Positions 16,031 to 43,100 of a stretch of DNA of 48,430 bases are shown one piece after another; the first letter of the stretch is position 1, and each line of letters starts with the position of its first letter. Made by a program: the position numbers and the translations under genes. The stretch covers positions 1 through 48,430 of the forward strand of contig JAHJST010000014.1 in assembly GCA_018829905.1 (NCBI GenBank), read 5' to 3'. Source of the DNA: Patescibacteria group bacterium (GTDB taxonomy: Bacteria; Patescibacteriota; Minisyncoccia; RBG-13-40-8-A). Under the pieces are notes generated by a model. It searched no databases. It had not been told where the DNA came from and saw only the letters and a list, made by a program, of their open reading frames with translations.

Positions 16031-16183
16031 AATAATCACAACTAAATAATGCACATAAATTGCCAGCTAAATCAAGGTAAATGATTTATTAGTACTTCTC
16101 GGCTAAACACATTGCTGTGCTTACACCTGAAGCCTATCAAGGTCGTAGTCTCCGACCAATCTATGATACTTAATCTTGAGATT

Positions 16184-16221
<38 letters not shown>

Positions 16222-16404
16222 CAACGTAGCTACCCAGCAATGCCCTTGGCAGGACAACTGGCACACCAGAGGTTAGTTCATTCCGGTCCTCTCGTACTAG
16301 GAACAAGTTCTCTCAAGTATCAACGCCTACGGCAGATAGGGTCCAACCTGTTTTACAACGGTCTAAACCCAGCTCGCGTACCCTTTTAATTGGCGAACAG
16401 CCAA

Positions 16405-17244
16405 CGTGTACACACTCCATAATTACTTATGGTACAGACTATAACTTTATTCTTATGATTTCTAAATAAGAATACCGACGTATTATAGAGGGTTATTTAC
16501 CTCTATCCCGCGCTCGATCTAATCGAGCAAACGAAGTCGTTACGGGGTTATACGACAATTTGTATCTCATTGATGGAATTATATACGGATATACAATTCC
16601 ACAAAATCTCTTTGCATCTTTGCTTGGGATATATAATCTATATCCATCTTGAATCCAGTGTAATCTAGAATCAAAAGAAAAATTTTTCTTAAGACATTTT
16701 TTTAATATCTCATTTTCTTCCTTTGTGAATGACAAAGTATTAAGAAATAGACCATAACAGTCATTTCTTCTACCACCATCATCCATAAACCATACTGCTA
16801 AACTTAATGAAGACTTTAATAATGAACAAATATTTTTTGGAATAACTTTCTTGCCTGTTTTTGAATAAAACTGCATGTGTAATTTTTCCAAAAAATCATT
16901 TGTTTTTGTCTTAAATCTCCACTGAGTATAAATCTTATCATATCTTTTATCAAAGATTTTAATACAATGTGGTTTTGAAGAAGTTAATTTTTGCAATTTT
17001 TTATACTTCCAGAATAAATATTTTTTCTGAGATTCTGAATGACCTATCTCTAATCGTACACTATTTTTAGTTTTTCCTAAATAAGCATCTCCTAATAAGG
17101 TGCCTATAATAATTGCATTTTCTTCTGACGAAATCTTGTATTGTCGCAAACTTCCCACGATATTACCCATTCTTTTATTTTAACATAAAAGAATTAGAGC
17201 TTCATCGTTATTAGTCGATTTTACAAGGGCTTGATTCTGTTCTT
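16405..17244 (-). mobile_element. Group I intron in 23S (A-loop region, approx. E. coli 2546) carrying a LAGLIDADG gene
   Basis: The exons join as CCCAAGGGT|TTGGCTGTTCGCC. The 5' exon ends in U. An internal guide GCCCTTG pairs with CAAGGGT. The conserved GTTATAGTC (J8/7-P7') element is present and the intron ends in G. Confidence 0.7.
16493..17170 (-). CDS. LAGLIDADG homing endonuclease (intron-encoded, two-motif)
   Basis: 225 aa with motifs LLGDAYL and WFMDDGG. It lies entirely inside the intron. Confidence 0.9.
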   Translation of the reverse strand: MGNIVGSLRQYKISSEENAIIIGTLLGDAYLGKTKNSVRLEIGHSESQKKYLFWKYKKLQKLTSSKPHCIKIFDKRYDKIYTQWRFKTKTNDFLEKLHMQFYSKTGKKVIPKNICSLLKSSLSLAVWFMDDGGRRNDCYGLFLNTLSFTKEENEILKKCLKKNFSFDSRLHWIQDGYRLYIPSKDAKRFCGIVYPYIIPSMRYKLSYNPVTTSFARLDRARDRGK

Positions 17245-17279
17245 ACCCTTGGGACCTGCTTCAGCCCCAGGATAGGATG

Positions 17280-18133
17280 CATATTACTCATGTATTACTA
17301 CACGTATAGACTATATCATCACCCTATTCTTTAAAAAAGAATGAGGGGTTCAACGTATTATAGTAGTTTAAATCCAGAATATCTGGTACCTACTATCTTG
17401 TCATATAGACTCAGTCGTTACGGGGTTAAAGAAATTTTATATCTCATTTGGGGAACAATATATTGATTAATTATTCCGCAAAATCTTTTAGACTCTCTAC
17501 TTGGAATATAAATATTCCAAAATTTTCCTTTTCTATGCAATTTGCTTTCTATCTTAAAATTATCTTTTAGACATTTTTGCAATAATTTCTGTTCTTTAAG
17601 AGAAAAAGATTCTGTGCTTATTCTAAAAGCATTGCAATCTGTTCTTTTGTGTCCATCGTCCATGAACCAAATTGCCAAGGACAAAGGAGATTTCAAGAAT
17701 TTGTGAATATCTAATGGAATAATTTTTCTATTACTTTTATAAAATTTATTTCTATAAAAGTTAAATAATTCTAAAGAAAAAGTAGAAAAATGCCATCTCT
17801 TATATTCTTTTTTCGTTCTTTTATCAGTTCTTTCAATTATTCTTGGCTTACTTGAAGCTAAATTATTAAATTCTAAATATTTCCACTTCAAATAAGTTTT
17901 CTGTTTTTCCGTATGATCAACCTTTAAACGAACATTTTTTCCATTTTGTTCTAAATGACCATCTCCTAAAATTATTCCTATTAAGATATCCTTTTGTCTA
18001 TTCGATAAATTCATAAATTTCTTTAACTTCCCACGATATTGCCTTATTATATCTGGGTTTCTTTTAATAAGGTTTCATCGTTATTAGTTAAATTTAGACA
18101 TTCTGATTTCTCAGAACGCGGCCAATCCTTTTT
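17280..18133 (-). mobile_element. Group I intron in 23S (PTC, approx. E. coli 2511) carrying a LAGLIDADG gene
   Basis: The exons join as CGATGTCGGCT|CATCCTATCCTGGGGCTG. The guide GGCCG pairs with CGGCT. A GATATAGTC element is present and the intron ends in G. Confidence 0.7.
17418..18014 (-). CDS. LAGLIDADG homing endonuclease (intron-encoded)
   Basis: 198 aa with motifs ILGDGHL and WFMDDGH. Confidence 0.9.
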   Translation of the reverse strand: MNLSNRQKDILIGIILGDGHLEQNGKNVRLKVDHTEKQKTYLKWKYLEFNNLASSKPRIIERTDKRTKKEYKRWHFSTFSLELFNFYRNKFYKSNRKIIPLDIHKFLKSPLSLAIWFMDDGHKRTDCNAFRISTESFSLKEQKLLQKCLKDNFKIESKLHRKGKFWNIYIPSRESKRFCGIINQYIVPQMRYKISLTP

Positions 18134-18144
18134 AGCCGACATCG

Positions 18145-18969
18145 CTTATCGGCATTTTCTCTTCTCACGAAGAGGTTCGGACTATATCTTCATCCTTTAT
18201 GATCTAATAAAGGAGTTGACGTATTATAGAAGCTATATTTTTTAAAACAACTTCTATCTGCTTTTTAAAGCAAGTCTCTACAGGGCTATAACTCAATTTT
18301 ATACTTCATAGATGAAACAATATTATCTTGTATAAGATTTATTAATTTTGGTATTGAATCTTTTAAAAATCTTAAACGATAATAATTTTTATCTTTATTC
18401 ATTCTTACATGCAATCCAATGTTTTTTAATAGAGATACCAAGATTTTTTGTTCTTTAACACTAAATTGTTGAGTATTTAAGTAAAAATCAGATTCTCTAC
18501 ATCTACTTCCATCGTCCATAAACCAAACAGATAAAATTACTGGATCTAATTTAATTTCTTTAGGAATTATTTTCTTACCATTTTTATAAAACAAATTATA
18601 AATTTCTGTCAATTCAGTGCTTTGTTTTGTGTTAAAACGATAAGAAATTCTATTTCCACTATTATTTCTTTTTTTGGGTGGAGAAATTGATATATTTTTT
18701 AATACAGAATATTTCCAATCAACATATTCTTTTTGTTTAAAAGAATGATTGATTTCTAAAAATGCATTCTTCCTTCCAGGAACAATTCTTAAATATCCAT
18801 CACCCAAAACAGATCCAATAATCATAGATCTCTGTAATTGAGTTAAGCTTCCCACGGTATCGACCATATATATTAATTATACTCTATTTTGGCCAGAACA
18901 TATATGGCTTTCACCGTTATAAGTCAAATTTTTTGTATAGCATTACTACTATAGCACCCCAATGTATTA
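18145..18969 (-). mobile_element. Group I intron in 23S (PTC, approx. E. coli 2500) carrying a LAGLIDADG gene
   Basis: The exons join as GTTCGGCACCT|CGATGTCGGCT. The guide GGGGTGC pairs with GCACCT. A GATATAGTC element is followed by the P9-like hairpin CTCTTCGTGAGAAGAG, and the intron ends in G. Confidence 0.72.
18286..18867 (-). CDS. LAGLIDADG homing endonuclease (intron-encoded)
   Basis: 193 aa with motifs VLGDGYL and WFMDDGS. Confidence 0.9.
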   Translation of the reverse strand: MVDTVGSLTQLQRSMIIGSVLGDGYLRIVPGRKNAFLEINHSFKQKEYVDWKYSVLKNISISPPKKRNNSGNRISYRFNTKQSTELTEIYNLFYKNGKKIIPKEIKLDPVILSVWFMDDGSRCRESDFYLNTQQFSVKEQKILVSLLKNIGLHVRMNKDKNYYRLRFLKDSIPKLINLIQDNIVSSMKYKIEL

Positions 18970-19020
18970 AGGTGCCGAACAGCGCCGTCGCTATGGACGC
19001 TCAGGCGCTACTAGCCTGTT

Positions 19021-19282
19021 CAATCTTAATTAGATTAGACTATATCTTCATCCTGATAAAAATCAGGAGGCGGCGTATTATGGTAGTTTAAATCCAGAAT
19101 ATCTGGTACCTACCATCTTGTCTTATAAGACTCAGTCGTTACAGGGTCAATCTATAAGAATAGATGACTTCCCACGGAATTATCTAATCAACCCCAATGA
19201 TAGATTAGATTTCTCCGTTATAAGCCGCATTTTTTACTTGCCATTACTGACAAGGGGGACAACAATCCTTATTTCAGGATCT
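19021..19282 (-). mobile_element. ORF-less group I intron in 23S (PTC, E. coli 2449 site)
   Basis: The exons join as CCCCGGGGAT|AACAGGCTAGTAGCGCC. The guide GTCCCC pairs with GGGGAT. A GATATAGTC element is present. Length is 262 nt with no ORF. Confidence 0.72.
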
Positions 19283-19805
19283 ATCCCCGGGGTAACTTTT
19301 ATCCGGTGTCTCCCCCATTTCTACAAATAAGGGTCGGTTCACTAAGTTCTGCTTTCGCAACTGCGCGACGTGTCAGTCTTGCAGTAAAGCTGGCTTATGC
19401 CTTTACACTATCACTCCGATTTCCATCCGGAGCTAGCCAACCTTTAAACATCTCCGCTACTCTTTAGGAGATGAGCGCCCCACTCAAACTACCCAGCACC
19501 CACTGTCCCTTAGATAAACTAAGGTTAGAATTATTATTTTAAAAGATGGGTATTTCACTGGTGACTCCACCCAATCCGAAAATCAGGCATCATAGTCTCC
19601 CCACTATGCTACGCATTCAAAACAATAACCCAATAGGAACTTATAGTAAAGCTCCCGGGGTCTTTCCGTCTTGCCGCAGGTAACCGGCATCTTTACCGGT
19701 ACTGCATTTTCACCGGGCTCCTCGTTGAGACAGTTCCCCAGTCGTTACGCCATTCCTGCAGGACATAAATTACATGCCAAGGAATTTCGGTACCTTAGGA
19801 CCGTT

Positions 19806-20066
19806 CGAACTGTGTTAGCTCATAGTCGCCTATGAGATCGGACTATATCATATCTTAATAAGTCAGTCGGCAGTTTTTCGACTTACAAGACTCTTGCGTA
19901 TAGTCTCTGGGGGTTCTTGTTAAAAAACAAGTCTTTCCTGCGGATTGTCCGCACTCAAACATTTTTAGGGTTCGCTATAATATCACTATTATAGTATCCT
20001 AGTTTGAGATTCTCGGAGTTTCCCGCATATAGCAAGATTTATTAACGTAACTACAACGATTAACTT
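19806..20066 (-). mobile_element. ORF-less group I intron in 23S helix 69 (E. coli 1917 site)
   Basis: The exons join as GGCCGTAACTAT|AACGGTCCTAAGGTA. The guide GTAGTTACG pairs with CGTAACTAT. A GATATAGTC element is present. Length is 261 nt. Confidence 0.75.
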
Positions 20067-21477
20067 ATAGTTACGGCCGACGTTTACCAGGGCTTCGGAC
20101 AGTGAGCATTCCAATAAATTGGAACACCCCCATCGTTAACCTTCTGGCACTGGTCAGGCGTCAGCCCCTATACATCTTCTTACGAATTAGCAGGGACCTA
20201 TGTTTTTAGTAAACAGTCGCCAGGGATCTTTAGCTGCGGCCTCGCAAAACGAGGCGGTCCTTATTGCAAACTTACGGACGCTGTTTTGCCGAGTTCCTTA
20301 ACGAGGTTTGACCCGTTCACCTTGGGCTACTCGCCCTACCCACCTGTGTCGGTTTGAGGTACGGATCCTTTATTCTTAGCTCTAGAGAATTTTCTTGGAA
20401 ACTTGCTCATTTAAATTGATCTATCCGTGGACAAACCTTTTGTCAATCCTTGGGCTATATCTACCGGATTTACCTGATAGACACCCTTAGACAAACAACG
20501 TGAATCCAATAACACGCTTAAATTACTAAGTTCCGTCATCCCATCGAAAAAATAAAGGAGGGCTGGAATATTAACCAGCTATCCATCGACTACCCCATTT
20601 GGGATTGCCTTAGGACCGCCTAACCCTTGGCTGATTTACATTGCCAAGGAAACCTTGGGTTTTCGGTGACGCGATATCTCATCGCATTTGTGGTTACTCA
20701 TTCCAACATTCTCTCTTCCTTGCGCTCCACCCTACCTCACAGTAGAACTTCACAGCACAAGAAATGCTCCTCTACCACGTATATTTTTAAAAAATATACA
20801 TCCGTATCTTCGGTATCAAGTTTAGCCCCGTTACATTTTCAGCGCGAAGTCTCTAGACTAGTGGGCTATTACGCACTCTTTAAAGGATGGCTGCTTCTAA
20901 GCCAACCTCCTAGCTGTTTGAGTGACTTCACTTCTTTTGCCACTTAACTTGATTTAGGGACCTTAGATTACGATCTGGGCTGTTTCCCTTTTGACCATGG
21001 AGCTTAGCCCCCACAGTCTAACTGCTGATTTATACAACATGGTATTCGGAGTTTGATTGGTTAGGTAGGCGTGAGCCACCCTAATCCATTCAGTGCTCTA
21101 CCCCCATGTCTTAAAAATCAACGCTAACCCTAAAGCTATTTCGAGGAGAACCAGCTATTACCAAGTTCGATTGGCTTTTCACCCCTAACCACAGCTCATC
21201 CCCTAGAATTGCCCGTCTAGTGGGTGCGGACCTCCCTCTGACTATTCATCAAAGTTCATCCTGGCCATGGTTAGCTCACTTGGCTTCGGGTCTCTTGCGT
21301 TTTCTAAAAACGCGCTATTAACACTCGGTTTCCCTATGCTTCCATTCTTACGAATTTAAACAAAGAAAACACAAGAAGTCGTTGGATCGTTCTGCAAAAA
21401 GCACGCCGTCACCCTAATGGGCTCCGACTCTTTGTAAGTATATGGTTTCAGGTACTATTTCACCGGGCTTACCGCCC

Positions 21478-21518
<41 letters not shown>

Positions 21519-22205
21519 GATATTGGGTATTTAGCCTTGACAGAATAGTGCTGCCAGATTCCGACAAGGTTGCTACCTCGCCGTACTCAAGAGTAATGAC
21601 TAGGAGTATAAAACCCTTTTCATTTACAGGGCTATTACCTTCTTTGGCAGGGCTTTCCAGCCACTTTCAACTAAGGAAGTTTTAATTTTTTTTACTCCTC
21701 AGGGGCAAACCCCTGACGTCACTATCTTACAACCCTCTTTTCCTACCATAAAATGATTAGAAAAAAGTTTGGGCTAATCCCGTTTCGCTCGCCGCTACTC
21801 AGGGAATAAAAGTTTTTTTCTTTTCCTCCAGCTACTGAGATGTTTCACTTCGCTGGGTTCGCTTCCTATGCAAGCATAGGATAACTTGGCTCATCACCAA
21901 GCTGGGTTTCCCCATTCGGAAATCTCCGGATCAAAGGTTGCTACACACCTCCCCGAAGCTTATCGCAGCTAAGCCACGTCCTTCATCGCCCCAATATCCC
22001 AAGGCATTCACCATATACCCTTATGAATAACCTATTATTAGCTGACAATTTATATGCATTAAATTGTCTATTCAATTTTTAAGGTGCTTAAAAGTTTTAA
22101 AAAAACCGCTTTAAAGCGGTTCAATTTGACTGGGTACATAAATACCCGGTTTTTCAACCGCTTGTATAAAATAATTGTAGTAAAACTTTTATCATAATTA
22201 ATATC

Positions 22206-25450: not shown

Positions 25451-25615
25451 TTATGCTTTTCCCATTATTCTGAACATTCCAGTACCACAAGTAGGACAGC
25501 TACCCTTCATAGCTCTTCTCTTGCCACCCTTTCCTTTTATGGTAACTTCCTTTGGATCATTCATCTCAACATCTTTTTTGCGACATTTGACGCAATAACC
25601 TGTTATCTTGTCCAT
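25451..25615 (-). CDS. Small zinc-ribbon protein (54 aa, DUF5679-like) between 16S and tRNA-Ile
   Basis: This ORF is absent from the ORF track because it is shorter than 60 aa. It translates as MDKITGYCVKCRKKDVEMNDPKEVTIKGKGGKRRAMKGSCPTCGTGMFRIMGKA, with paired CxxC motifs. The family assignment is from memory. Confidence 0.6.
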   Translation of the reverse strand: MDKITGYCVKCRKKDVEMNDPKEVTIKGKGGKRRAMKGSCPTCGTGMFRIMGKA

Positions 25616-25887
25616 GTATATCTACGCCTTCATTCAATGGCTAGTTAAATGAAAACGATATATTAATTATTATCAAATTCCATTATATCTTTAAATAAAT
25701 AAAAAAACAAGCAAAAAGTCAAGCCCTTAGCCTGTGGATAAATTGAATTCTGTGTAGTTGCCCTGAAAAAACGATCTTCCTATAAGATACAAAGATCAAC
25801 ATCTCTTAAAATAAGATCAACCTAATTACTTAAAAAAGTAACTAAAAATATTGTTCCATCCACAGCTTCCGCTACGGATGCCTTGTT

Positions 25888-26104
25888 CATGAGGTTCCCT
25901 ATGTCGCCATAAGGCATGGACTATATCTTCACCCTTTATAAAGGGGTCCGGCGTGTAGTCTCTGAGGGGTCAATTACGACTTCCCTGCTGATTGTCTGCA
26001 CTAATACATTGTCACTTAATATAAGTAGTATTAGATACACAGAGTTTCCAGCATACAGCCAGATTTTTCTAAAAAGATTACTCTTTTTAGGTCACAACAA
26101 ATTT
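25888..26104 (-). mobile_element. ORF-less group I intron in 16S (approx. E. coli 1498, 3' of h44)
   Basis: The exons join as GACTAAGTCAT|AACAAGGCATCCGTAGCGGAAG. The guide GTGAC pairs with GTCAT. A GATATAGTC element is present and the intron ends in G. Length is 217 nt. Confidence 0.65.
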
Positions 26105-26191
26105 ATGACTTAGTCCTGGTCACCGAACTCACCTTAGGCCCCATTAAATGGGGACGTCGGGTGCTCCCGGCTTCCCTGACTTGACAGGCGG

Positions 26192-26616
26192 AATTCAATA
26201 GTAGAAAACTTACTTTGAGTTCCCACTTAGCATGCGGATTTCCCGCACTAAGCGAGTTCCTTTTCGAAATTCGAAAAAGATTTTGTCCTTCCTAAGTCTT
26301 TAGAAAAACTTAGTACTATGACGCAGCTGACTTCTCACGGTATCTATTGTTTTCAACAACCATGAGATCTCCTCGGGTTATTTATAGAACGATTCCTTAC
26401 ATCCCAAATTAAGGTTTTGCACTAAAGACCTTCTCCATAACCCACCGCTACATGGATCAATCACCTTTTAATAATTTGGGCTATAATTTGCCTTCAGATC
26501 CTTCAGCTTAAGCCTCGCGGCTTTAAGCCTATCCTTTGGCTACGCTTCTAGTCAAATCATCTAGAAAGGTTGGATTTTAACCAACTAGTTTTATAAACTG
26601 CCGAGCGCATTTATTT
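26192..26616 (-). other. Unclassified 425-nt insertion in the 16S decoding-centre region (approx. E. coli 1398/1399)
   Basis: The exons read ...CTTGTACTCA and CCGCCTGTCAAG..., matching UUGUACACA|CCGCCCGUCA. The insert has no ORF, no GATATAGTC element and no obvious internal guide. It contains long hairpins capped by GCGA (near 26515) and GAAA (near 26240). Boundaries are good to a few nt. Confidence 0.6.
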
Positions 26617-26944
26617 TGAGTACAAGATTTGAGAACGTATTCACCGCGGCGTAGCTGATCCGCGATTACTAACGATTCCAGCTTCATGAGGTCGAATTTC
26701 AGACCTCAATCCGAACTGAGACCAACTTTGATGGGATTGGCTCCACCTTACGGCTTAGCAACCCATTGTATTGGCCATTGTAGCGCCTGTGTTGCCCAGG
26801 GTATCAGAGGGCCATGCTGACTTGGCGTCATCCTTTCCTTCCTCCTCATATAATGAGGCAGTCTTCTGTGACACTTATAACACAGAACAAGGGTTGCGCT
26901 TGTTACCCGACTTAACGGAGCAACTCACGCCACAAGCTGACGAC

Positions 26945-27193
26945 CATATTCATCCATAATTACTTATGGTATGGACTATACCATCCTCCAGACTGGAGGC
27001 CAGCGTTTAATGATGGGTTATAACCACCATTAAGCTTTTCTGCCCAGAAAAGCTTAGTCTCTACGGGGTCTTTTTAAAAAAAGACTTCCCACGATATTGC
27101 CCATTCTTTAATAAAAGAATTTGGGTTTCATCGTTATGAGCTGGTTTTTCAATCCCGATTGCTCGGGAAAGGGCCGTGTATCTAAAAGATACC
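26945..27193 (-). mobile_element. ORF-less group I intron in 16S helix 34 region (approx. E. coli 1060)
   Basis: The exons join as GCTGCATGGCT|GTCGTCAGCTTGTG. The guide GGCC pairs with GGCT. A GGTATAGTC element is present, and the 3' hairpin CCATAAGTAATTATGG is shared with the 23S intron at 16405-17244. Length is 249 nt. Confidence 0.68.
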
Positions 27194-27739
27194 AGCCATG
27201 CAGCACCTGTCCTAATGTCCTTGTAGAAATCTCTTGTTTCCAAGAGGGTTCATTAGGATTTCAAACCCTGGTAAGGTTCTTCGCGTAGTATCGAATTAAA
27301 CCAGACGCTCCACCGTTTGTGCAAATCCCCGTCTATTCCTTTGAGTTTTAGTCTTGCGACCGTACTTCCCAGGCGGGATACTTAACGCGTTAGCTTCGCC
27401 ACTTGAAGGGTCGATACTTCAAACAGCTAGTATCCATCGTTTACAGCGTGGATTACTGGGGTATCTAATCCCATTCACTCCCCACGCTTTCGTCTCTCAG
27501 GGTCAGGAATGCGCCAGCTAAATGCCTTCGCCTTTGGTGTTCCTTAAGGTATCAACGGATTTCACCCCTACTCCTTAAGTTCCATTAGCCTCTCACATCC
27601 TCTAGTTTAGCCGTATCTTTTGCAGACTTGATGTTGAGCATCAAGATTTAACAAAAGACGCACTAAACCCCCTACAGACGCTTTACGCCCAATAATTCCG
27701 GACAACGCTTGGGGCACTCGTATTACCGCTCCTGCTGGC

Positions 27740-28641
27740 CGTTGACAATTTTACAATTGCGTTGGACTATATCACCACCCAGTATTAATATACTGGGGCT
27801 CAGCGTATTATGTCAGTTTATTTTCCTGATTATCAGGTACCTGACATCTTTCTAGTTTAATTCTAGAAAAGTCTCTGAGGGGTTGTCTGTATTGTGGTAA
27901 TTTATACTTAAAACAATTTAAAATATATGGTGAAATAATTTTAATAAACTTATTTCTTCCTTTTGAACCTATATATATTCTAGGATATCTTTTTCCTCTA
28001 ATCAGATTATTGTAGACATTAGATTCAATGCCAAAGTTTTTCATTAATATATCTCTTAATTTTTCAACTTCTTTAACAGAAAAACAATGTGTTGATAAAT
28101 AAAAGCTACAATGATCGTTTGGTCTATAGTCTATACTACCATCATCCATATACCAAATTGCTAAAGACAAAGGAGATACTAATAATTGTTCTATGTTTTT
28201 TGGAATAATTTTTTTCTTATTAGAATAAAACATTTCTCTAAACACATTTAAGTCTTTAATAGACTTGGTTAAGAAATACCATTGCTGATTATCTTTTCTT
28301 TGTTTTGGTTCTGAACGACAAATGTTTTTAAACTTATTATATAGCCAAAAAACATATTCTTTGCTTTCTTGCTTTTGTTTAAAACCAAAAGAAGTAGAGA
28401 CATAAGGTCTGATTAAAAAACCATCACCCAATAAATTCCCAATTAGTATATCAATTTGTCTTTGAGTTAAAATATTTTTGACAAAATCTATCATATATAT
28501 TATTTTATCATAATTTTAACCTACAAACAACTTCCCTGCGGATTGCCACATAAAATGGTTTCCCGCATATAAGCTAAGTTTTTCCATATTGCATTACTGC
28601 AATAGGTCGCGCCACCCTTTACGAGCAAAGGATGTACTTTC
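27740..28641 (-). mobile_element. Group I intron in the 16S 530 loop (E. coli 516 site) carrying a LAGLIDADG gene
   Basis: The exons join as CTAAACTCGT|GCCAGCAGGAGCGGTAATAC. A GATATAGTC element is present and the intron ends in G. Length is 902 nt. Confidence 0.72.
27808..28494 (-). CDS. LAGLIDADG homing endonuclease (intron-encoded)
   Basis: 228 aa with motifs LLGDGFL and WYMDDGS. Confidence 0.9.
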   Translation of the reverse strand: MIDFVKNILTQRQIDILIGNLLGDGFLIRPYVSTSFGFKQKQESKEYVFWLYNKFKNICRSEPKQRKDNQQWYFLTKSIKDLNVFREMFYSNKKKIIPKNIEQLLVSPLSLAIWYMDDGSIDYRPNDHCSFYLSTHCFSVKEVEKLRDILMKNFGIESNVYNNLIRGKRYPRIYIGSKGRNKFIKIISPYILNCFKYKLPQYRQPLRDFSRIKLERCQVPDNQENKLT

Positions 28642-29331
28642 ACGAGTTTAGGAGCCCCTTATTCCTAGGGTGATCTCAAAAATTGTTCCCCTAGAAAAGA
28701 ACTTTACACCCCGAAGGGCTTCTTCATTCACGCGGCGTCGCTCCATCAGACTTTCGTCCATTGTGGAAGATTCTCGACTGCTGCCTCCCGTAGGAGTGAG
28801 GCCCGTATCTCAGTGCCCCTGTTGGGGATCGCGCTCTCACGCCCCCTACCCGTCATAGCCTTGGTAAGCCATTACCTTACCAACAAGCTGATAGGCCGCA
28901 GGCCACTCTCTAACCAATAAATCTTTACCCAAAAGGGATTATCGGGAATTATTCCGGATTTCTCCGGGTTATGCCCGAGTTAGAGGTATGTACCTACGTG
29001 TTACTAACCCGTCTGCCATGGGCCTAAACCCATTCGACTTGCATGCCTTATCCACGCCGCCAGCGTTCGTCCTGAGCCAGGATCAAACTCTCAATATAAG
29101 AATCATCACAAAATTCAGCACAAATAAGTAAACTTATACGTGCCTTATTTGTAATGATCAATAGATCAGGACAACTACACAAAATTCAATAGTTGTCTAT
29201 TCAGTTATTAAAGAACAACTTAAAACAGAGTTTAAACTTTTTTAAACAAAAAAACCTAAACTCTGTTTTAAACGTACTGGTAAATTGTGAGTTAATTTCA
29301 CATAAAATTAATATTAATACTTGTATTATCA

Positions 29332-33036: not shown

Positions 33037-33489
33037 TTAATCCTTTTTAACACCTGAATCTTTAGTTTTTTCTAGTTCTCGATAAATAGTTCCTAATACT
33101 CCGTTAATAAATCTACCAGAAGATTCTCCTCCATAGCTTTTAGCTAATTCAATTGCTTCGTTTATAGCTACCTTTGGAGGAACTTCTTTTTCATCTCCGA
33201 ATAACAATTCAAAGATTCCTATTCTTAAAACATTTCTATCAATAATAGTTATTTGTTCTAATGGCCATTCAGGAGCAGACTTTTCAATTATTTTATCTAT
33301 TTTTTCTCTATGTTTTAAAACTCCTTCAGAAAGAGATTTAATAAAATCTTTTTCATCTTCAGCTCCTTTTCCGAATTCTTCCATATTTTTTTTAATAATA
33401 AGATCTATTTCAAGATTTTTCTTTTTATTAAAATCCCACTCATAAAGAGATTGAAGAACAATTGAACGAGCTATATGACGTGAAGACAT
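33037..33489 (-). CDS. nusB: Transcription antitermination factor NusB
   Basis: 150 aa with [17 protein letters not shown] at the N-terminus and [25 protein letters not shown]. Confidence 0.9.
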
Positions 33490-34289: not shown

Positions 34290-34402
34290 CGACCTTTATC
34301 TTTCCCCTTATGGGGCTGGAGTTAGCACCTTCTTTAAAAAATCACCTTAAAGGGTTGCTGACGGGTCGTAGAGCCAGAACTCTCACCGCACTCTTGATAA
34401 TT
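34290..34402 (-). promoter_or_regulatory. SAM-I (S-box) riboswitch aptamer
   Basis: The minus strand reads TTATCAAGAG-TGCGGTGAGAGTTCTGGCTCTACGACCCGTCAGCAACC-(P3)-AAGGTGCTAACTCCAGCCCCATAAGGGGAAAGATAA. This matches the conserved S-box strings AUCAAGAG, CUGGC, GCAACC, GGUGCUAAxUCC and AAAGAUxA, and P1 is TTATC/GATAA. A TTGACA-17-TAAACT promoter lies at about 34425-34452. Confidence 0.75.
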
Positions 34403-34466
34403 ATTATTTAATTGTATGTATTTAGTTTAATTTATAATAAATGGTTTGTCAAATTTTTAATTAATT

Positions 34467-36130: not shown

Positions 36131-37003
36131 CTATTTATTATTTTTTGTCTTATTGTCTAATTCTTTTTGTTTTAAAAACGCCTCTAAAGAATGTGATTGT
36201 TCTACTCTTAAAATATTTTTTAAAAAATCTTCTTCTATTTTGTTAACTTGTCTTTCGGAAATATTTTTGAATACATCTGAAACTTCTTGTGCTCTATCTA
36301 GAATAAACCTTCCAAAAAGACCATCCTTAACTAATTGTTTGGTTTTTACCCTTCCTGACTTTTTAATCTTTGTTCCTTTCCATAATCTATTTTTCGGAGG
36401 AGATATAAAAGAAACAATAATAATTTTGCATAATTTGTTATAAATAAATATTATTTTATTATTTTGTGAATGAACCAACGTTCCATCTGTTGCTCTTCCT
36501 AAATACCATTGAATTTTTTCTGGAATAATTTCAGTATTAACATTATATGCATAATCAATAAAAAAAATATGGTGCTGATAAGGTTTTGTATTTTTTATTC
36601 TTCCATTTAAAAATGCTCTGTATGTAGCCTCTGCATTTATAACCCACTCTAACTCCTTATATTTATCAAAATGATTAATCAATGTTCTCCAAGATAAAGA
36701 AACAGCAAACTTAAGTAATTCATTTTTATAATTAGATGTCACCTTTTTCCTATTATGATAGGGATAAAAAATATTTTTTGAAAACCAAGTTTCATGTTTT
36801 GAAAAGGAAACCTCGCAATCTATGCATAAAAGAAACTTTTTTTCGGCATCTTGAATCCTTTTATTTGGAGCTATGGCTGATCTAAGTCTTTTTGTTATAG
36901 AGCTTTCTTTTAAATATTTTATAACGAAAGCTGGAATTATATGACTTCTCTTTAATGGTTTGGTAAAACCACAAAGAAAACATTTTCTATTATTGTTTTT
37001 CAT
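36131..37003 (-). CDS. Hypothetical protein with an N-terminal HNH-like/zinc-finger motif
   Basis: 290 aa with CFLCG-x8-SHIIP ... LLCIDCEVSFSKHE (two CxxC pairs flanking an H-I-I-P). Its start overlaps the methylase stop by 14 nt. Confidence 0.65.
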   Translation of the reverse strand: MKNNNRKCFLCGFTKPLKRSHIIPAFVIKYLKESSITKRLRSAIAPNKRIQDAEKKFLLCIDCEVSFSKHETWFSKNIFYPYHNRKKVTSNYKNELLKFAVSLSWRTLINHFDKYKELEWVINAEATYRAFLNGRIKNTKPYQHHIFFIDYAYNVNTEIIPEKIQWYLGRATDGTLVHSQNNKIIFIYNKLCKIIIVSFISPPKNRLWKGTKIKKSGRVKTKQLVKDGLFGRFILDRAQEVSDVFKNISERQVNKIEEDFLKNILRVEQSHSLEAFLKQKELDNKTKNNK

Positions 37004-40000
37004 TTAGCTCAACTGTTTTAATTTCCTCTTTTTTTAATCCATATAATTTATAAACTAATTGATCAATTTGTTTTTCGTATTCATGAACTTTATCTTGCTT
37101 TCTTGGATTATTCATATAATCGTTTTCATGAGTGATGACGAGAATTTGCCGGACAAGATTCGATATTTTTATTTGTTCAGCTTTGCTTGCAATTACAAGA
37201 GGGAGTTTTTTTACATGAGTTAGTTTAACTTGAGGGAAGACTCTACCAGCTTCCTTTACTAAAACATTATACTCTCTCTCAATATAATGTGAATTTACTA
37301 CACCTAAGATATAATATATATCTAGCTTTGATTTATAATCCTCTTTTATGAATGCACACTGAATCGTATTTCTGAACCAACGGCTACTTGTATCTAGTGT
37401 AGCTCGAAGGCAGGACGCGGTTTGTCTCCACAGTATCTTTGGAGACATAGTAAAGACCTCTCGGGTAAAACTTACACTCTCATTACTTTTTAGTATATCA
37501 CGATAATCTAAGTTAAAATATTCGTCTGTTTGTGATGCAATGCGCCACTTATCTATTAATCTACCGTACCATACTGGAATGCTATTATTAAATTGTTTTG
37601 GGTTACTATTAAATAATCGTTCGTAAAGATCATTCCCACCTTTGTTTTTTAAACCTATGCCCGATCGATGGTATTGTATGCCTGCGTCTCTAATCTCAAG
37701 TGTATCTGAAAATAAAACTTCATTCTCACGTAACGATCTTCCCCAAAATAAGCTCATATCCTTTGCTGCAAAAACTTGTTGCAAAAGAATTTCTTGAAAG
37801 GCGACATTATCAAGACTTCCTGCAAACTTACTTCCTTCACTCATGTCAGCAAAAAGATAAGTATTACATGGTTGCGATCGCACAATAAACGATAATGCCG
37901 TAGGAACAATAATATTCTCAAAGACTTCTTCACCCAAATTTACAATTTTGAGAATCCGAAATTGTAAAATAACACTGCGTATATCTTTGTATCTTGGCTG
38001 GGCAAGGAACGTGTTGGGAGTAATAAAGGCTTGAATTCCATTATTTCTTAATTTCCGAAGTCCTAATTGTATAAACATTTTGTAAACGTCGGCATAATTC
38101 TTAATCGCATCTTGGTAGAGAGGTCGTAGCACGGGCAAGATCTCATCAATATTTGCCCCATATGGTGGATTCGCAATCATTACATCAAATCCACCCTTCT
38201 CGTGAAAAACTTCTGAGAAATATACCTCATAATCAAAATCCTTGAGGCCATTGGTGATCTTGCTGATAAGTTCGTCAATTTGCTCTTTGTATGCCTGTTT
38301 TCTACTCACGCTGGTTTCGTTGAAATAAAGCGGCTTGAGTTTTTCGAGCCGGTTGAATAGCTCCTGGTTAAACAAGGTTTTCTCAATACTCAAAAGTGAA
38401 TCACCATGCACGATTTTGTAATTAAGGTTCGGTAATGGTTGAATTGTTTTTCTGTCTTCCTCATCTACTACAAGTGAAAGCCATAATCGAAGCTTGGCAA
38501 TTTCTACAGCTCCTTGATCAATATCTACTCCATAGAGACAGTTTTGTATGGCGTGACGCTTAAAATTGTATGGATTTCTTTCACCATCCTTGCCGATGTA
38601 AGGCGTTAAAACATTTCGGGTTCTGATAATTTCCTTCATCATGCCAACTGGAAAAGCACCTGAACCTACAGCGGGATCGCACACACGGATTGACTTCAAC
38701 TTTTCATCAATTAGCTTGGCGTGTTTGCGTATATTCTCGGAAAGACTAAAACTGTAGCGATCAGTTTCGCGTCCCTCATTTACTACTCGGCTTTCATACT
38801 CAATAACGGCCTCGCCGTATTTAATCATCGTTTCGATATCTTCCTTACTAACTTTGCCTTCAAGTTCAGTCACCAAATAATAAGTTAAACTTTCTCGACA
38901 CATATAGTGGACAACTTCTCTGGGTGTATAGTAAGTTCCTCTTGATTTTCTGTCTTTAACCTCTAAAAGATTTTCAAATACTTTTCCAAGCATTTCTGGA
39001 TCTACGGCAACTTCTTTTTCTAATGGTTCATCTTCTTTAACTGTAAAATTATATCGATCGAAAACATCTAGAATACCAGTACCAATATCGCCTTGTTTTG
39101 TTTTTTCATTATTTGAAAACAATTCATTTAATAATTCTATATCTGTATCTTGCCAATCATAATCATTTAATGGATCAAAAAGCCCACCATTTAGAAATGG
39201 TATCCGACATTTAAACTGAGCATAATAATCTTTAGGTCTTTCTAGTCGAAGCACCTCATAAAAAAGTGGTTCTAAAACATCATTAAAAAAATTCTTATAA
39301 TCAGCATGCTTTTTTTCAAAAAGTTGACGCAAAAAATCCTTTGGCCCGGTTCCCCAATTTTCATTACGCCCAACGCCAAACCAACCCTTTTTTTGCAAAA
39401 AATATAAAAATACAATTTGACCCAAAAGCTTTTTTGCAAAATCAACAGAATCAACTTTTTTTTGCACAAAATCTTTCTTAATTGCAGAATCTTTTTTAAT
39501 AATCTCATCAAGCCCTTCTTTAAGTCCCCAAAAAAGATCACGATACCTTTCAAAAAATTCCTTTGTGACTTTTTCAACACTGAATGCTTCTTCTAATTCT
39601 TTAAGCGTTGGATCATTAGAATCATCTTGCAAAATTGGCGCTAATCTACTTTGAGCAGTATGACTATTTTCATTTTCACCAACCAAAAAAGAAAATCGCC
39701 TAGCAGGCGTTAGCTCTTGCTTAACCCTCACCCTTTCTCCAGAAGTATCAATTTTATAATCCATTTTAACCAAAGAAAATCGCCAATCTTCTGAATCAGG
39801 TGAAACAAAGGCAACCAGGGCTGCATCCTTTAAAATATCTCCCCTACTACCATTTAAATACCAAGCAATAAAATTTCTTTGCATTGTACGAGCTCGCTCA
39901 AGAGATGTTTCTTTTTTAAGTTGGACAATCAATATATCAATCTTATTGTCATCTACATCTTCATATTTTCCAATTCTTTCTAGGGTTTGTATATATGGCT

Positions 40001-40151
40001 TATATGCATCTGGAATATAATTACCTCGATAAACAAAAGATTTTTCTTCAATATGATTAAATAAATTTTTAATAAAACCAATAAAACGTCCTTTGTCGAA
40101 AGGATTTTCAAAAACTTCTTTAATTTGTTGAATGGCAAAATTTTTATCCAT
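36990..40151 (-). CDS. Large N6-adenine DNA methyltransferase, Eco57I/PglX/DrmMI-like (MTase plus C-terminal specificity region)
   Basis: 1053 aa with the SAM motif VCDPAVGSGAFP and catalytic motif IANPPYGA. It has the helical FLYFLQKKGWFG region typical of this family and a long C-terminal region. Confidence 0.88.
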   Translation of the reverse strand: MDKNFAIQQIKEVFENPFDKGRFIGFIKNLFNHIEEKSFVYRGNYIPDAYKPYIQTLERIGKYEDVDDNKIDILIVQLKKETSLERARTMQRNFIAWYLNGSRGDILKDAALVAFVSPDSEDWRFSLVKMDYKIDTSGERVRVKQELTPARRFSFLVGENENSHTAQSRLAPILQDDSNDPTLKELEEAFSVEKVTKEFFERYRDLFWGLKEGLDEIIKKDSAIKKDFVQKKVDSVDFAKKLLGQIVFLYFLQKKGWFGVGRNENWGTGPKDFLRQLFEKKHADYKNFFNDVLEPLFYEVLRLERPKDYYAQFKCRIPFLNGGLFDPLNDYDWQDTDIELLNELFSNNEKTKQGDIGTGILDVFDRYNFTVKEDEPLEKEVAVDPEMLGKVFENLLEVKDRKSRGTYYTPREVVHYMCRESLTYYLVTELEGKVSKEDIETMIKYGEAVIEYESRVVNEGRETDRYSFSLSENIRKHAKLIDEKLKSIRVCDPAVGSGAFPVGMMKEIIRTRNVLTPYIGKDGERNPYNFKRHAIQNCLYGVDIDQGAVEIAKLRLWLSLVVDEEDRKTIQPLPNLNYKIVHGDSLLSIEKTLFNQELFNRLEKLKPLYFNETSVSRKQAYKEQIDELISKITNGLKDFDYEVYFSEVFHEKGGFDVMIANPPYGANIDEILPVLRPLYQDAIKNYADVYKMFIQLGLRKLRNNGIQAFITPNTFLAQPRYKDIRSVILQFRILKIVNLGEEVFENIIVPTALSFIVRSQPCNTYLFADMSEGSKFAGSLDNVAFQEILLQQVFAAKDMSLFWGRSLRENEVLFSDTLEIRDAGIQYHRSGIGLKNKGGNDLYERLFNSNPKQFNNSIPVWYGRLIDKWRIASQTDEYFNLDYRDILKSNESVSFTREVFTMSPKILWRQTASCLRATLDTSSRWFRNTIQCAFIKEDYKSKLDIYYILGVVNSHYIEREYNVLVKEAGRVFPQVKLTHVKKLPLVIASKAEQIKISNLVRQILVITHENDYMNNPRKQDKVHEYEKQIDQLVYKLYGLKKEEIKTVELNEKQ

Positions 40152-40152
40152 A

Positions 40153-43100
40153 TTAATTACTTAAAAAATATTCAGACAAGATAACTTCTCTTGGTCCAAA
40201 AGTCTGAGCAGCGCTCTCAGAAACGTGTTCCTTTAAAAGTTCATTTGGAATGTTTTTCTGTAAAACAGCTATAATCTTTAAAGGGTTTATACCATCTTTT
40301 AAAACTAGATCTAATTCTTTAAGTGTTCTTTTGGTTGTTTGCTTGGGAAATCCTCCCTCTATAAGTTGTCTCATAATCTGTCCAAGATAGGCTTCTTGGT
40401 CTTCTGTAAGTCTTCTGAAGTCTTTTATGGCCTTTAGACGCATCAAAACCTGAGTAGCAGTATCTCTGCCTCCTTTCATTTTTAAATCTGGCATTTCTTC
40501 GGTTGTAACAAAAAGAAATTCTTGTTTATTTATATCTAACAATTTATAAAAATTTTTATCTAATTTCTTTTTCTTTAAATCAATAGTCACCTCTAATAAA
40601 TCTGCAGCAGAAATAAAGTCTAATTCTTGAGATTTTTTAATATTAGCTAAAAAGAATTTTTGAAGCTTACCTTTTCGAAAATAAGTTAAAAGACTATTTG
40701 CATTATTTTTTTCAACCCTAGCAGTACGTGATTTTTTAGGCAATTGTTTAATTTTAGAAAATAAATCTGGATTATCATCACGAATTTTTTTAATAATCTG
40801 AAGATACTTAAGCTCGCTTTTTTCTTTTTCATCTTCGCCTGTAATTGTTTTTTTAGAAATCAAGCGATTAAATAATTCATGAGAACCAATTAGTTCACCA
40901 TCTGTTAAAAGTCTAGCATCTGATCCCAAAAGACTTATAAAAGCATGTATCTTGGCTTCAGCTGTTTCTCTAAGCTTTATTTGACTGTTTGATTGTATGG
41001 TTGGAAAAAAATTAAAAGCATAGATTTTAGAAAAATTAGTATCAACTCTATTGATACGACCAACTCTTTGCATAAGTCTTGTTGGATTCCACGGAATGTC
41101 ATAATTAATAACAACATTTGAACGATGAAGATTAACACCCTCTGATAATACTTCTGTAGTAACAAGTATTCGATAATCGTTTTTTGGAAAACGTGCTCCT
41201 GCATCAAAATTTTCAATTACCTTTTCTCTTGTTGATACGCTAGAGTCACCAGAAAAAGATATGGCTTGTTTTGGAAATTTTTTATCCAAATTTTTAGCAA
41301 GATAATTAGCTGTTTCTTTTGATTCTGTAAAAACAATTAATTTATTATTTTTTAAAACAGCTCGCGAAAAAAGAATGTTTATAAATTTAAGCAATTTAGG
41401 ATCGCGATTAACATCGCGCCACAATTTTTTAATTTCTTTTAATATATTCAGATCATTTTCTAAATCTTCTTTAAATTTTTTCTTAAAATTCTTAGAAGAA
41501 TATTTCTGTGCTTTGTCTTCATCTACTAAAGATTGAATTCTTTTTTCATCATCATTTTCAAGAAATTCAAAAATTTTATTAATATATTTTTTACTAGTAT
41601 AAACATTGCCTTTATTAAATTCTTCTAAGAACTTTTCATATGAATGAATAAATCTATCTATTGAGTTTCTAAAAGCAAAAAAACTACTTTCTAATCTTTT
41701 AATTAAAAGTATCTTCATAAATTTACCCATATTTTCCTGAGACAATTTTTCTGGCTGGGAAACTGAACCATTATAATACTTTGGAAGCAAGGGAGTATAA
41801 CGAGCGTATTTAAATCTTCTCACTATAAGATCTATTGTTTTATTAAAAACATTATCTTCTTCTTTATTAAGCTCATAAAATACAGCCTCTGGATCAGACA
41901 CTTCTGGAAATTTAAGTCCTTGTTTTTTTAAATCATCCTTAAAATAATTTTCAATTTCAGACCTTGTTCTTCTAACCATTAAATATTTAAGTACTTTTTC
42001 TCTAATTTCTTTGGCGTTTTCTTTTGAAATCTCAATATATTTTTCTCTGTTTGTTTGTTTGTTTAATTTTTTAACTCTTTGATCAAGCTTAGAAAAAAAC
42101 GATTCTAAGTTGGGTAAACCAGGAATTGTACTTTTTTTAACTTTTTGAAAAAGTTTAATTTGGCTTAAAATGTCTTTTGGATGATTATTGTATGGTGTGG
42201 CTGTTACAAGAATAACTCTTTTACCACGACAAATTCGAGATAATTTTTCATAAGTTATATTTGTTTCTGTTCTAAATCTGTGAGCCTCATCAATAAACAC
42301 ATTCTTGTATTTATCAATCCCAGATTTTAATAATTTATCTAATTTACCGATAGATTCAAAATTAGTTTGTCTAACCTGAAAATCTTCAAATACATTTGGC
42401 CAAGATCCTGGATTGTCTTTTTCTAAAAGCATTGGGGGTGCTATAACCAAATTTCTACCATCAAGTTGATTTGCAAGCATGGCTGAAATATATGTTTTAC
42501 CAAGCCCAACAACATCAGAAATAAAAACACCACCATATTCTTCAAGAATTTTTTTTGCATTTAGAACAGCTTGTTCCTGATATTCTAATTTCTTAAATCT
42601 GGCTGGTGTGTATTTATATAAAACTTCTTCTGATTGTTTTAATTCGTCCTTAAAATATTCATATAAAAATTTTAAATAAAGCTCATATGGCGTAATATTA
42701 TTGTTAAACCAAGTTTTAGTCTGTATAGTCTCAATATATTCTTTGCTTACATCTATTGAATCCTTCCAAAGCTCATTAAATTTTTGTAAAGCAAATTCAT
42801 AATCATTTTTATTTTTAAGCTCTACATTAAACTCTAAATTATCTACCAGTCCTGCTTTAGTAAAATTACTTGAACCGACAATAACTCTATTGGTAGTCCC
42901 TGTTTTCATAGATGTCATAATATAAAGTTTTGCATGAATGTTTGCAGCAGGATATGCTTTTATTTCTAATTTTCCACTCTTTAACCATTCTAAAAATTTA
43001 CTTATCCCTTCTTCTACTTGTCTATTGTCTTTAGATTCTCTTATTTCATTTATAATTGCTTCTGAAAATTGTTCTTTCGTCTCTGCATTAGAAAATCTGA

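Follow-up and report, generated by a model that had tools for sequence, protein, structure and literature searches.

How can a ribosome be built from a 23S rRNA gene whose catalytic centre is broken by four introns, and in which one of the exons between them measures 11 nt? This question is raised by a 48,430-nt stretch of DNA (the window), a 48.4-kb MEGAHIT contig assembled from a groundwater metagenome (ENA ERZ27247117, k141_156046), the same sequence being found in several groundwater DNA runs. A single rRNA operon (16S, tRNA-Ile/Ala, 23S, 5S) lies on its minus strand, and the 23S gene (16069-22032) takes up 5964 nt, including five introns that sum to 3042 nt, for a predicted mature length of ~2922 nt. 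Four of these introns, which we call I1 to I4, interrupt 97 nt of the 23S sequence at its catalytic (peptidyl-transferase) centre (PTC). It is highly probable that they are mobile, IA-like group I introns at positions 2449, 2500, 2511 and 2546 (E. coli numbering, Ec) of the 23S gene of a groundwater bacterium, and that the open reading frame (ORF), where present, lies in loop L6.

The host is probably a member of the Patescibacteria, or candidate phyla radiation (CPR), to judge by its relatives, since most of the closest homing endonuclease gene (HEG) and 23S relatives carry the label Parcubacteria, Paceibacterota or Patescibacteria. The operon is flanked by genes for RecA, FtsK, RpoC, RpoB, FtsW, TrmD and RNase III, a SAM riboswitch and a restriction-modification pair, which identify the window as a segment of a bacterial chromosome; an origin in a chloroplast or mitochondrion was considered and rejected on the same grounds.

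Exons, splice sites and guide sequences

The Rfam 23S model (RF02541) matches the gene in two blocks, 19143-22032 (1985 bits) and 16069-16574 (245 bits), leaving 16.4-19.1 kb unexplained. With the E. coli 23S gene as reference (L001:454-3357), blastn placed Ec 1918-2450 at 19805-19282, Ec 2450-2500 at 19020-18970, Ec 2512-2547 at 17279-17244 and Ec 2548-2887 at 16403-16085. The remaining 11-mer is too short for BLAST and was placed by a spliced dynamic-programming alignment, which set out five exon pieces with gaps after Ec 2449, 2500, 2511 and 2546. Read along the minus strand, the upstream exon (19283-19805, Ec 1918-2449), which ends in ...CCCCGGGGAU by both methods, is followed by I1 (19021-19282; 262 nt, no ORF), a 51-nt exon (18970-19020, Ec 2450-2500, again by both methods), I2 (18145-18969; 825 nt), the micro-exon CGAUGUCGGCU (18134-18144; 11 nt, Ec 2501-2511, spliced alignment), I3 (17280-18133; 854 nt), a 35-nt exon (17245-17279, Ec 2512-2546, both methods), I4 (16405-17244; 840 nt) and the 3′ exon, which starts at Ec 2547 and completes the 23S gene (16069-16404; Rfam, blastn and spliced alignment). 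A LAGLIDADG gene is carried by each of I2, I3 and I4. The initial annotation of this DNA had proposed the same four insertion sites, exon lengths of 51, 11 and 35 nt and outer limits of 16405-19282, and these proved exact, since I1 begins at 19282 and I4 ends at 16405. The window has a single copy of the micro-exon 11-mer, CGATGTCGGCT (18144-18134), which is invariant in 61 fetched 23S genes, that of E. coli among them.

The splice sites have the form expected by that annotation, base by base. A T precedes each intron (19283 for I1, 18970 for I2, 18134 for I3 and 17245 for I4) and the last base is G in all four (19021, 18145, 17280 and 16405). Guide sequences were sought in the first 70 nt of each intron, with G.U pairs allowed and a G required opposite the splice-site U; P1 denotes pairing with the end of the 5′ exon, and P10 pairing with the start of the 3′ exon, just upstream in the guide. 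In what follows a slash marks the junction. The I1 guide, UUGUU/GUCCCC (19255-19265), pairs with GGGGAU/AACAG, six pairs of P1 and five of P10 giving a score of 11. For I2, ACAUUG/GGGUGCU (18953-18965) pairs with GCACCU/CGAUGU (P1 7 + P10 6 = 13), and for I3, AGGAU(U)/GGCCG (18119-18129) pairs with CGGCU/(C)AUCCU (P1 5 + P10 5 = 10). The computed search returned ucaa/GCCCUUG for I4 (P1 7 + P10 4 = 11); by eye, the guide GAACAGaaUCAA/GCCCUUG (17224-17242) can be set against CAAGGGU/UUGGCUGUUC, with a P10 of 10 bp that includes a 2-nt bulge. Thus P1 is 5-7 bp long in all four introns, has U.G at the splice site and begins 11-23 nt into the intron. The internal guide sequences that had been called plausible are borne out by the scores, which are 10-13 for P1 plus P10 at an intron's own junction against 4-7 at the other three; a single foreign-junction pairing scores 11, mainly through wobble pairs.

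The pairings also define how the micro-exon is shared. Bases 1-6 (CGAUGU) form P10 of I2 and bases 7-11 (CGGCU) form P1 of I3, with no base in common. Because the 11 nt divide without overlap between the two, no splicing order is imposed on sequence grounds, on which both ribozymes (cores of ~250 nt each, one helical turn apart) could hold the micro-exon at once. The arrangement is less exceptional than the initial annotation supposed: the 11 nt are no awkward substrate for P1/P10 formation, and the same exon recurs at two other loci (see below).

In the mechanism that we propose, the 23S gene would be transcribed as a single precursor, in which each intron folds its own ribozyme core and picks its own splice sites by its guide sequence, which pairs in P1 with 5-7 bases at the end of the upstream exon (U.G at the cleavage site) and in P10 with 4-10 bases at the start of the downstream exon. 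Removal would proceed by the usual two transesterifications per intron and would restore the universal PTC sequence. I2 and I3 would both hold the 11-nt exon, through six bases in P10 and five in P1, and either may splice first. Cross-reaction between introns, which would lead to exon skipping, should be disfavoured by the differences among the four guide sequences; in engineered tandem Tetrahymena introns, distinct guide sequences are required if skipping of a short exon is to be avoided (PMC10136302).

Ribozyme cores, endonuclease genes and relatives

Four core blocks are common to I1-I4 and occur in the same order: AUAACGR(N)GAA (P4), AYCGUGGGAAG (P4′/P6), GUARMGACU (P7) and GAUAUAGUC (J8/7-P7′). 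A search with these blocks recovered four complete quartets in the 23S gene and one partial set (P4, P4′/P6 and P7 only) in a 16S intron. The J8/7-P7′ element noted at the outset, of the type GATATAGTC, is thus present in every one of the four introns, that of I4 taking the form GTTATAGTC. The Rfam group I model (RF00028) matches I1 at 41.3 bits (E 4e-8) and part of I2 (18158-18268) at 32.1 bits; ORF-less orthologues in other genomes pass its gathering score, at 54.1 bits for an intron at L2511 (locus L016) and 50.4 bits for one at L2500 (locus L066).

Covariation was counted in an alignment (A2) of 20 members, consisting of I1-I4 with their long L6 loops trimmed and 16 ORF-less relatives from other genomes, against a hand-derived structure of P2, P3, P4, proximal P6, P7 (the pseudoknot) and P8; P5, P6a, P7.1, P7.2 and P9 were excluded, as the alignment of variable hairpins is unreliable. 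The same unreliability explains why P8 is just 64% paired. Overall, 87.4% of cells are paired, compared with 73.0 +/- 1.1% after shuffling (0/500 shuffles reach the observed value) and 33-48% when the pairing partner is slid. Compensatory changes affect 7/7 pairs of P2, 4/5 of P3 and 2/4 of P4, and the outer pair of P7, which spans the bulged base, alternates between A-U (12 members) and G-C (7 members) with no mismatch, so that the P3/P7 pseudoknot is supported. Within I1-I4 alone, P3 pairs GCGGC with GCCGC, UUGAC with GUCAA, UUAAC with GUUGA and UCGAC with GUCGG, and P4 pairs ACGG with CCGU twice and ACGA with UCGU twice. The minimum free energy (MFE) fold of I1 contains P2, P3, P4, P5, P6/6a, P7.1, P7.2, P8 and P9 (z = -4.26), and its two hairpins between P7 and P3′ (P7.1 and P7.2) are a mark of subgroup IA. 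We conclude that I1-I4 are group I introns of one IA-like family with P7.1/P7.2 hairpins, and the claim of four group I introns stands on this core covariation, on the guides and on the Rfam matches of the ORF-less orthologues. Splicing of I1-I4 is very likely, given that the PTC has to be one continuous sequence and that the features of the ribozymes are intact, and it is presumed to be self-splicing.

A 77-nt stretch spanning P7, P7.1 and P7.2 is shared by I1 (19074-19150) and I3 (17354-17429), both on the minus strand, at ~91-92% identity, far above that of the remainder of the two introns. This likeness suggests that sequence may recently have been exchanged between introns at different sites of one gene.

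The three ORFs all lie in loop L6 on the minus strand and match the Pfam family PF03161 (LAGLIDADG_2) at 146-163 bits, against a cut-off of 25: that of I2 (18286-18867) encodes 193 aa (E 2.7e-43), that of I3 (17418-18014) 198 aa (E 7.8e-48) and that of I4 (16493-17170) 225 aa (E 1e-42). The I3 ORF, the only one compared with the PDB, matches I-SceI (1r7m) over its full length (E 1e-19, residues 6-195 against 32-225) and with both motifs, LGDGHL aligning with LGDAYI and WFMDDGHK with WFMDDGGK; the label of double-motif genes was for this reason the right one. Identity among the I2-I4 proteins is 34-46%, and a fourth copy, from a 16S intron, falls in the same range; in their alignment (A1) the LGDG/A and WFMDDG motifs are invariant, so that the I2 and I4 proteins share both. 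The LGDA and WFMDDG motifs of I-SceI presumably hold the catalytic aspartates. The I2-I4 products are therefore most likely monomeric two-motif enzymes, as predicted from these motifs.

The genes of I2 and I4 start upstream of the P4′/P6 block and are translated through the core (18845-18867, MVDTVGS..; 17148-17170, MGNIVGS..), so that one stretch of sequence serves both the N-terminus of the protein and the ribozyme core. A stop closes that frame in I3, whose ORF begins 23 nt further on. I1 has a short P6a hairpin where I2-I4 hold their genes, from which we infer that I1 has lost its HEG. At the DNA level, the I-SceI-type endonucleases of I2-I4 would spread the introns into empty alleles; such cleavage activity would fit the coexistence of empty and occupied alleles with exact boundaries, described below.

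Relatives were collected by scanning the GTDB set, one genome per species, with the endonuclease alignment, which gave more than 570 loci, of which 80 were kept; since loci were chosen by their endonuclease, the sample is biased. The 80 are mostly metagenome-assembled genomes of Patescibacteria/CPR, with some from Thermoflexus, Armatimonadota, Aquificae and Pyrinomonas. Spliced 23S alignment places introns of the same family at L1931/1951, ~L2255-2262, L2449, L2500, L2504, L2511, L2532, L2546, L2575, L2584, L2593, L2603 and L2656, with a mean of 3.1 introns per 23S 3′ half and a maximum of 6. Introns at L2511 are present in ~20 fetched loci and introns at L2546 in four (loci L010, L016, L019 and L024). 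An identical 11-nt exon separates L2500 and L2511 introns at locus L015 (Microgenomates GW2011_GWC1_46_15) and locus L021, and a 9-nt exon, TCAGACCGT (Ec 2585-2593), lies between L2584 and L2593 introns at loci L061, L062 and L072, with close variants at L048 and L081. Locus L016 has introns at L2511, L2546 and L2575, with exons of 35 and 29 nt between them. Micro-exons are clearly recurrent in these genes, for all the bias of the sample. Apparent exons of 6-9 nt at Ec 2253/2255-2261/2262 (loci L072, L042 and L010) were not counted, as they probably represent a single intron of ~0.95 kb split by the aligner. The L2500 introns of loci L021, L025, L034, L066, L073 and L077 appear to end in ...TA/CGATG, that is, in A and not G, a feature reminiscent of a Coxiella intron that is said to have no canonical omega-G.

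A further suggestion is tentative, and we regard it as rather doubtful: exons of 9-11 nt may be the physical minimum for tandem group I introns, having to supply P10 of the upstream and P1 of the downstream intron, and I2 and I3 may form a linked unit, co-converted or mutually blocking in homing, whose ribozymes may have to fold or splice in concert. Endonuclease targets typically span 14-40 bp and, with I2 and I3 inserted 11 bp apart, the target of each would have to overlap the insertion site of the other. If this were so, the locus would offer a natural system for the study of cooperative splicing and of interference between endonuclease targets.

Alleles, transcripts and alternative explanations

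Assembly of a contig from a mixture of strains could in principle combine introns that are real into an array in which not all four belong to one gene copy. This explanation survives better than the other rivals, and we consider it improbable. Logan contigs (k = 31) of four groundwater DNA runs were mapped to the intron region, and they reveal the mixture that such an artefact would need. The empty L2449 site is represented by a DNA joint, 19019 to 19282, that skips exactly 262 nt, and this I1-less form is the deeper one in runs X1 and X2 (74 and 29 in depth, where the I1-bearing form reaches 27 and 18). A sister contig from another assembly of the project (L003; ENA ERZ27247124, k141_165089), 99.84% identical over 5756 nt, lacks I4, leaving an exact empty site (...CCCAAGGGT/TTGGCTG...), and has instead introns at L2593 (245 nt, at 16358/16357) and L2656 (301 nt, ~16295), both missing from the window; the L2593-bearing form is seen in DNA runs X1-X3 as loose ends at 16357/16358. 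One loose end in run X4 joins the 51-nt exon to CGATGTCGGCTCATCCT, that is, without I2 and I3. Moreover, De Bruijn contigs break within the 51-nt and 35-nt exons. Near-identical strains therefore differ in the introns that they carry, and the differences fall exactly on the predicted boundaries.

Against an artefact stand the contigs on which the introns are linked. An independent 1749-nt Logan contig (L004, 99.94% identity) carries the 3′ part of I1, the exon, I2, the micro-exon and I3, an arrangement also present on L003, and a 1587-nt DNA contig of run X4 reads from I3 through the micro-exon and the entire I2 to the 51-nt exon; the micro-exon thus sits with both I2 and I3 on three single contigs. 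A 900-nt DNA contig covers I4 with both exon flanks, and the k141 assembly of the window implies that 141-mers spanning the 35-nt exon and both intron flanks should exist in the reads. Any doubt would at most concern the linkage of I3 to I4, not the micro-exon.

Low-depth DNA contigs also join the base after ...GGGGAT (19282) to 16404, 17430 or 18934, skipping 2877, 1851 or 347 nt, with 19-23 nt on the short side of the joint. Such joints may come from chimeric reads or from further variants of the L2449 intron with core blocks in common.

In the metatranscriptomes, contigs fall on the exons and hardly on the introns. An 89-nt RNA contig of run X10 reads AAAGTTACCCCGGGGAT, the 51-nt exon with 0 mismatches, CGATGTCGGCT and CATCCTATCC in succession; and the I4 junction is crossed by 47-nt contigs of runs X10 and X12, which join CCAAGGGT to TTGGCTGTTCGCC..., from 16404 downward, so that CCAAGGGU runs directly into 16404. 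Depth in the intron bins is 0-3, as against 11-180 or more for exon contigs specific to this gene; it is 0 except for a 151-nt piece of the I4 ORF (run X14) and two pieces of the I2 ORF with 95% likeness, which reach 2-3. Intron sequence is essentially absent from the public RNA runs, of which only one contained intron words, 4% of those sampled. The ligated exons, taken with the near absence of intron RNA, are consistent with splicing. RNA contigs show ligation at each of the four junctions, but related samples also contain intron-free DNA alleles, from which the ligated RNA could have come.

Less probable still is the idea that the operon is decaying and non-functional, a sink for selfish introns, while a second, intact operon makes the ribosomes. 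Such a view could draw on the nine to ten insertions in the operon (five in the 23S gene and four or five in the 16S gene) and on the lack of the CCUCC anti-Shine-Dalgarno sequence at the 16S 3′ end. The exons are intact, however, and without the introns they fit the 23S (1985 and 245 bits) and 16S (1067 bits) models; the operon has a normal 5S gene and a normal tRNA-Ile/Ala pair, and RNA contigs identical to the variable exon 2 of this gene were found; CPR genomes usually have a single rRNA copy (PMC11270868). Least credible of all is removal of the inserts without exon ligation, as for RNase III-type intervening sequences, which would leave a fragmented 23S rRNA with the 11-mer held in the ribosome: fragmented 23S rRNAs with intervening sequences are known in bacteria and suspected at other CPR sites (PMC11270868), and the RNA data are short assembled contigs, but the introns have complete group I cores with guides for both exons, the RNA contigs run through all four junctions, and a free 11-mer at A2503/G2505/U2506 would be hard to square with a working PTC.

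Several observations weigh against the preferred reading, of four spliced and mobile group I introns in one gene of a CPR bacterium. All four introns score below the RF00028 gathering score (50 bits), I3 and I4 having no match at all, so that the Rfam scan advised in the initial annotation gave sub-threshold matches for I1 and I2 and none for the other two; the shortfall probably arises from the 0.6-kb ORF in L6 and the IA-type periphery. The k = 31 Logan contigs cannot link I3 to I4 over the 35-nt exon, a link for which the k141 MEGAHIT contig is the one source. Intron-free alleles occur in DNA of the same communities (the I1-less, the I4-less and the X4 end without I2 and I3), and an RNA contig of run X14 with the 51-nt exon runs on into the sequence of a relative (CATCG..); since such alleles coexist and that exon contig comes from a relative, ligated RNA is not assignable to the intron-bearing cell. 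Finally, the taxonomy of the host is drawn from relatives only, and the nearest 23S exons are just moderately similar.

The wider operon and known intron systems

The fifth 23S intron, at L1917 (19806-20066, minus strand; 261 nt, no ORF), is of a group I type other than that of I1-I4. It exceeds the RF00028 gathering score (70.4 bits) and has an 8-bp P1, formed by the guide GUAGUUAC with the exon GUAACUAU. The 16S gene (25852-29098, minus strand) is likewise a mosaic, extending to ~25852 where the Rfam match stops at 26603. Its inserts, all on the minus strand, comprise one of ~0.9 kb at ~Ec 452-515 with the fourth LAGLIDADG_2 ORF (27808-28494); a 249-nt group I intron at Ec 1060 (27193-26945, 42 bits) with core motifs as in the 23S introns; a 425-nt insert at ~Ec 1398-1400 (26616-26192) with matches to group II D1-D4 models and no ORF; and a group I intron at Ec 1498 (~26096-25888, 88 bits). 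The 16S 3′ end (25852-25900, minus strand) reads ...GTAGCGGAAGCTGTGGATGGAACAATATTTTT and lacks CCUCC; a search for GGATCACCTCCT with 1 mismatch allowed found no match in the contig. The spacer between this end and tRNA-Ile contains a small ORF (25451-25616, minus strand) for ~54 aa with two CxxC pairs, resembling a zinc ribbon. Elsewhere on the minus strand, a SAM-I riboswitch (34293-34403, 67 bits) lies upstream of the 33037-33489 region, and at 36990-43344 an Eco57I/MmeI-like methyltransferase-specificity protein (1053 aa) adjoins a PLD-nuclease/SNF2-helicase protein (1063 aa), the two genes probably forming a restriction or defence pair.

Intron-dense genes of this kind break rRNA annotation, as the Rfam glocal matches mis-end both the 16S and the 23S gene here, and they also defeat primer-based surveys. 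The I-SceI-type enzymes at the new rDNA sites 2500, 2511 and 2546 are candidate meganucleases with new specificities. Knowledge of how group I introns work is left unchanged by the case.

The closest comparison is with the rRNA introns already described in CPR bacteria. PMC11270868 reports insertions in 82% of CPR 23S genes, with up to 16 per gene and a bias towards the 3′ part, multiple group I introns round the PTC being common, and PMC9698310 summarises a 2015 report (Brown et al.), including metatranscriptome support for removal of the inserts. As here, these are genes of groundwater hosts with several introns per gene and intronic LAGLIDADG genes (PMC11270868; PMC9698310), and in the 16S gene the shared features include a group II-like insert near position 1400 (~1400) as well as a group I intron at 1498. 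The insertion boundaries of PMC11270868 were located relative to E. coli and are stated to be approximate, not exact splice sites; its available text does not name sites 2511 or 2546 and does not treat micro-exons or P1/P10. The same source calls the CPR LAGLIDADG proteins 'single-domain', in contrast to the I3 protein, which aligns over its full length with the monomeric, two-motif I-SceI, and to its I2 and I4 paralogues, which have both motifs. The present case is a well-resolved, somewhat extreme member of this known phenomenon. To it we add exact splice sites and guides, the P10/P1 partition of the micro-exon and the strain-level presence or absence of single introns, and thereby base-exact sites and a core supported by covariation for a CPR intron family catalogued mainly as insertions relative to E. 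coli.

Tandem group I introns with short exons have reference cases in the Twort orf142 gene (23 nt, between two IA2 introns) and in the Coxiella 23S gene (34 nt) (PMC10136302; the Coxiella case is cited in PMC11270868 too). In both, as here, bacterial or phage tandem group I introns surround a very short exon. Among the Coxiella introns, one belongs to subgroup IA3 and contains a LAGLIDADG gene. Skipping of exons is reported for tandem systems of the Coxiella/Twort type. The present locus differs from them in having four introns within 97 nt and a shortest exon of 11 rather than 23-34 nt, which are features known from sequence, and from Coxiella in that the insertion sites lie in the PTC ring and not in helix 69-71. 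Natural tandem group I introns would thus tolerate exons of 9-11 nt, below the 23-34 nt of the bacterial and phage reference cases (PMC10136302).

Organelles provide the remaining parallels. I1 occupies the same site, L2449, as the omega intron of yeast mitochondria (Sc.LSU), and I-SceI belongs to the family of the I2-I4 endonucleases; here, in contrast, the L2449 intron has no ORF, and the I-SceI-like genes are found in introns elsewhere, in loop L6. The ORF of the omega intron lies in a loop other than L6. Mini-exons of < ~12 nt (< ~four codons) 'occur regularly' in the intron-rich mitochondrial genes of fungi and plants (PMC10352661), but those are organellar and mostly in protein genes such as cox1, whereas the micro-exon described here belongs to the catalytic centre of a bacterial rRNA.

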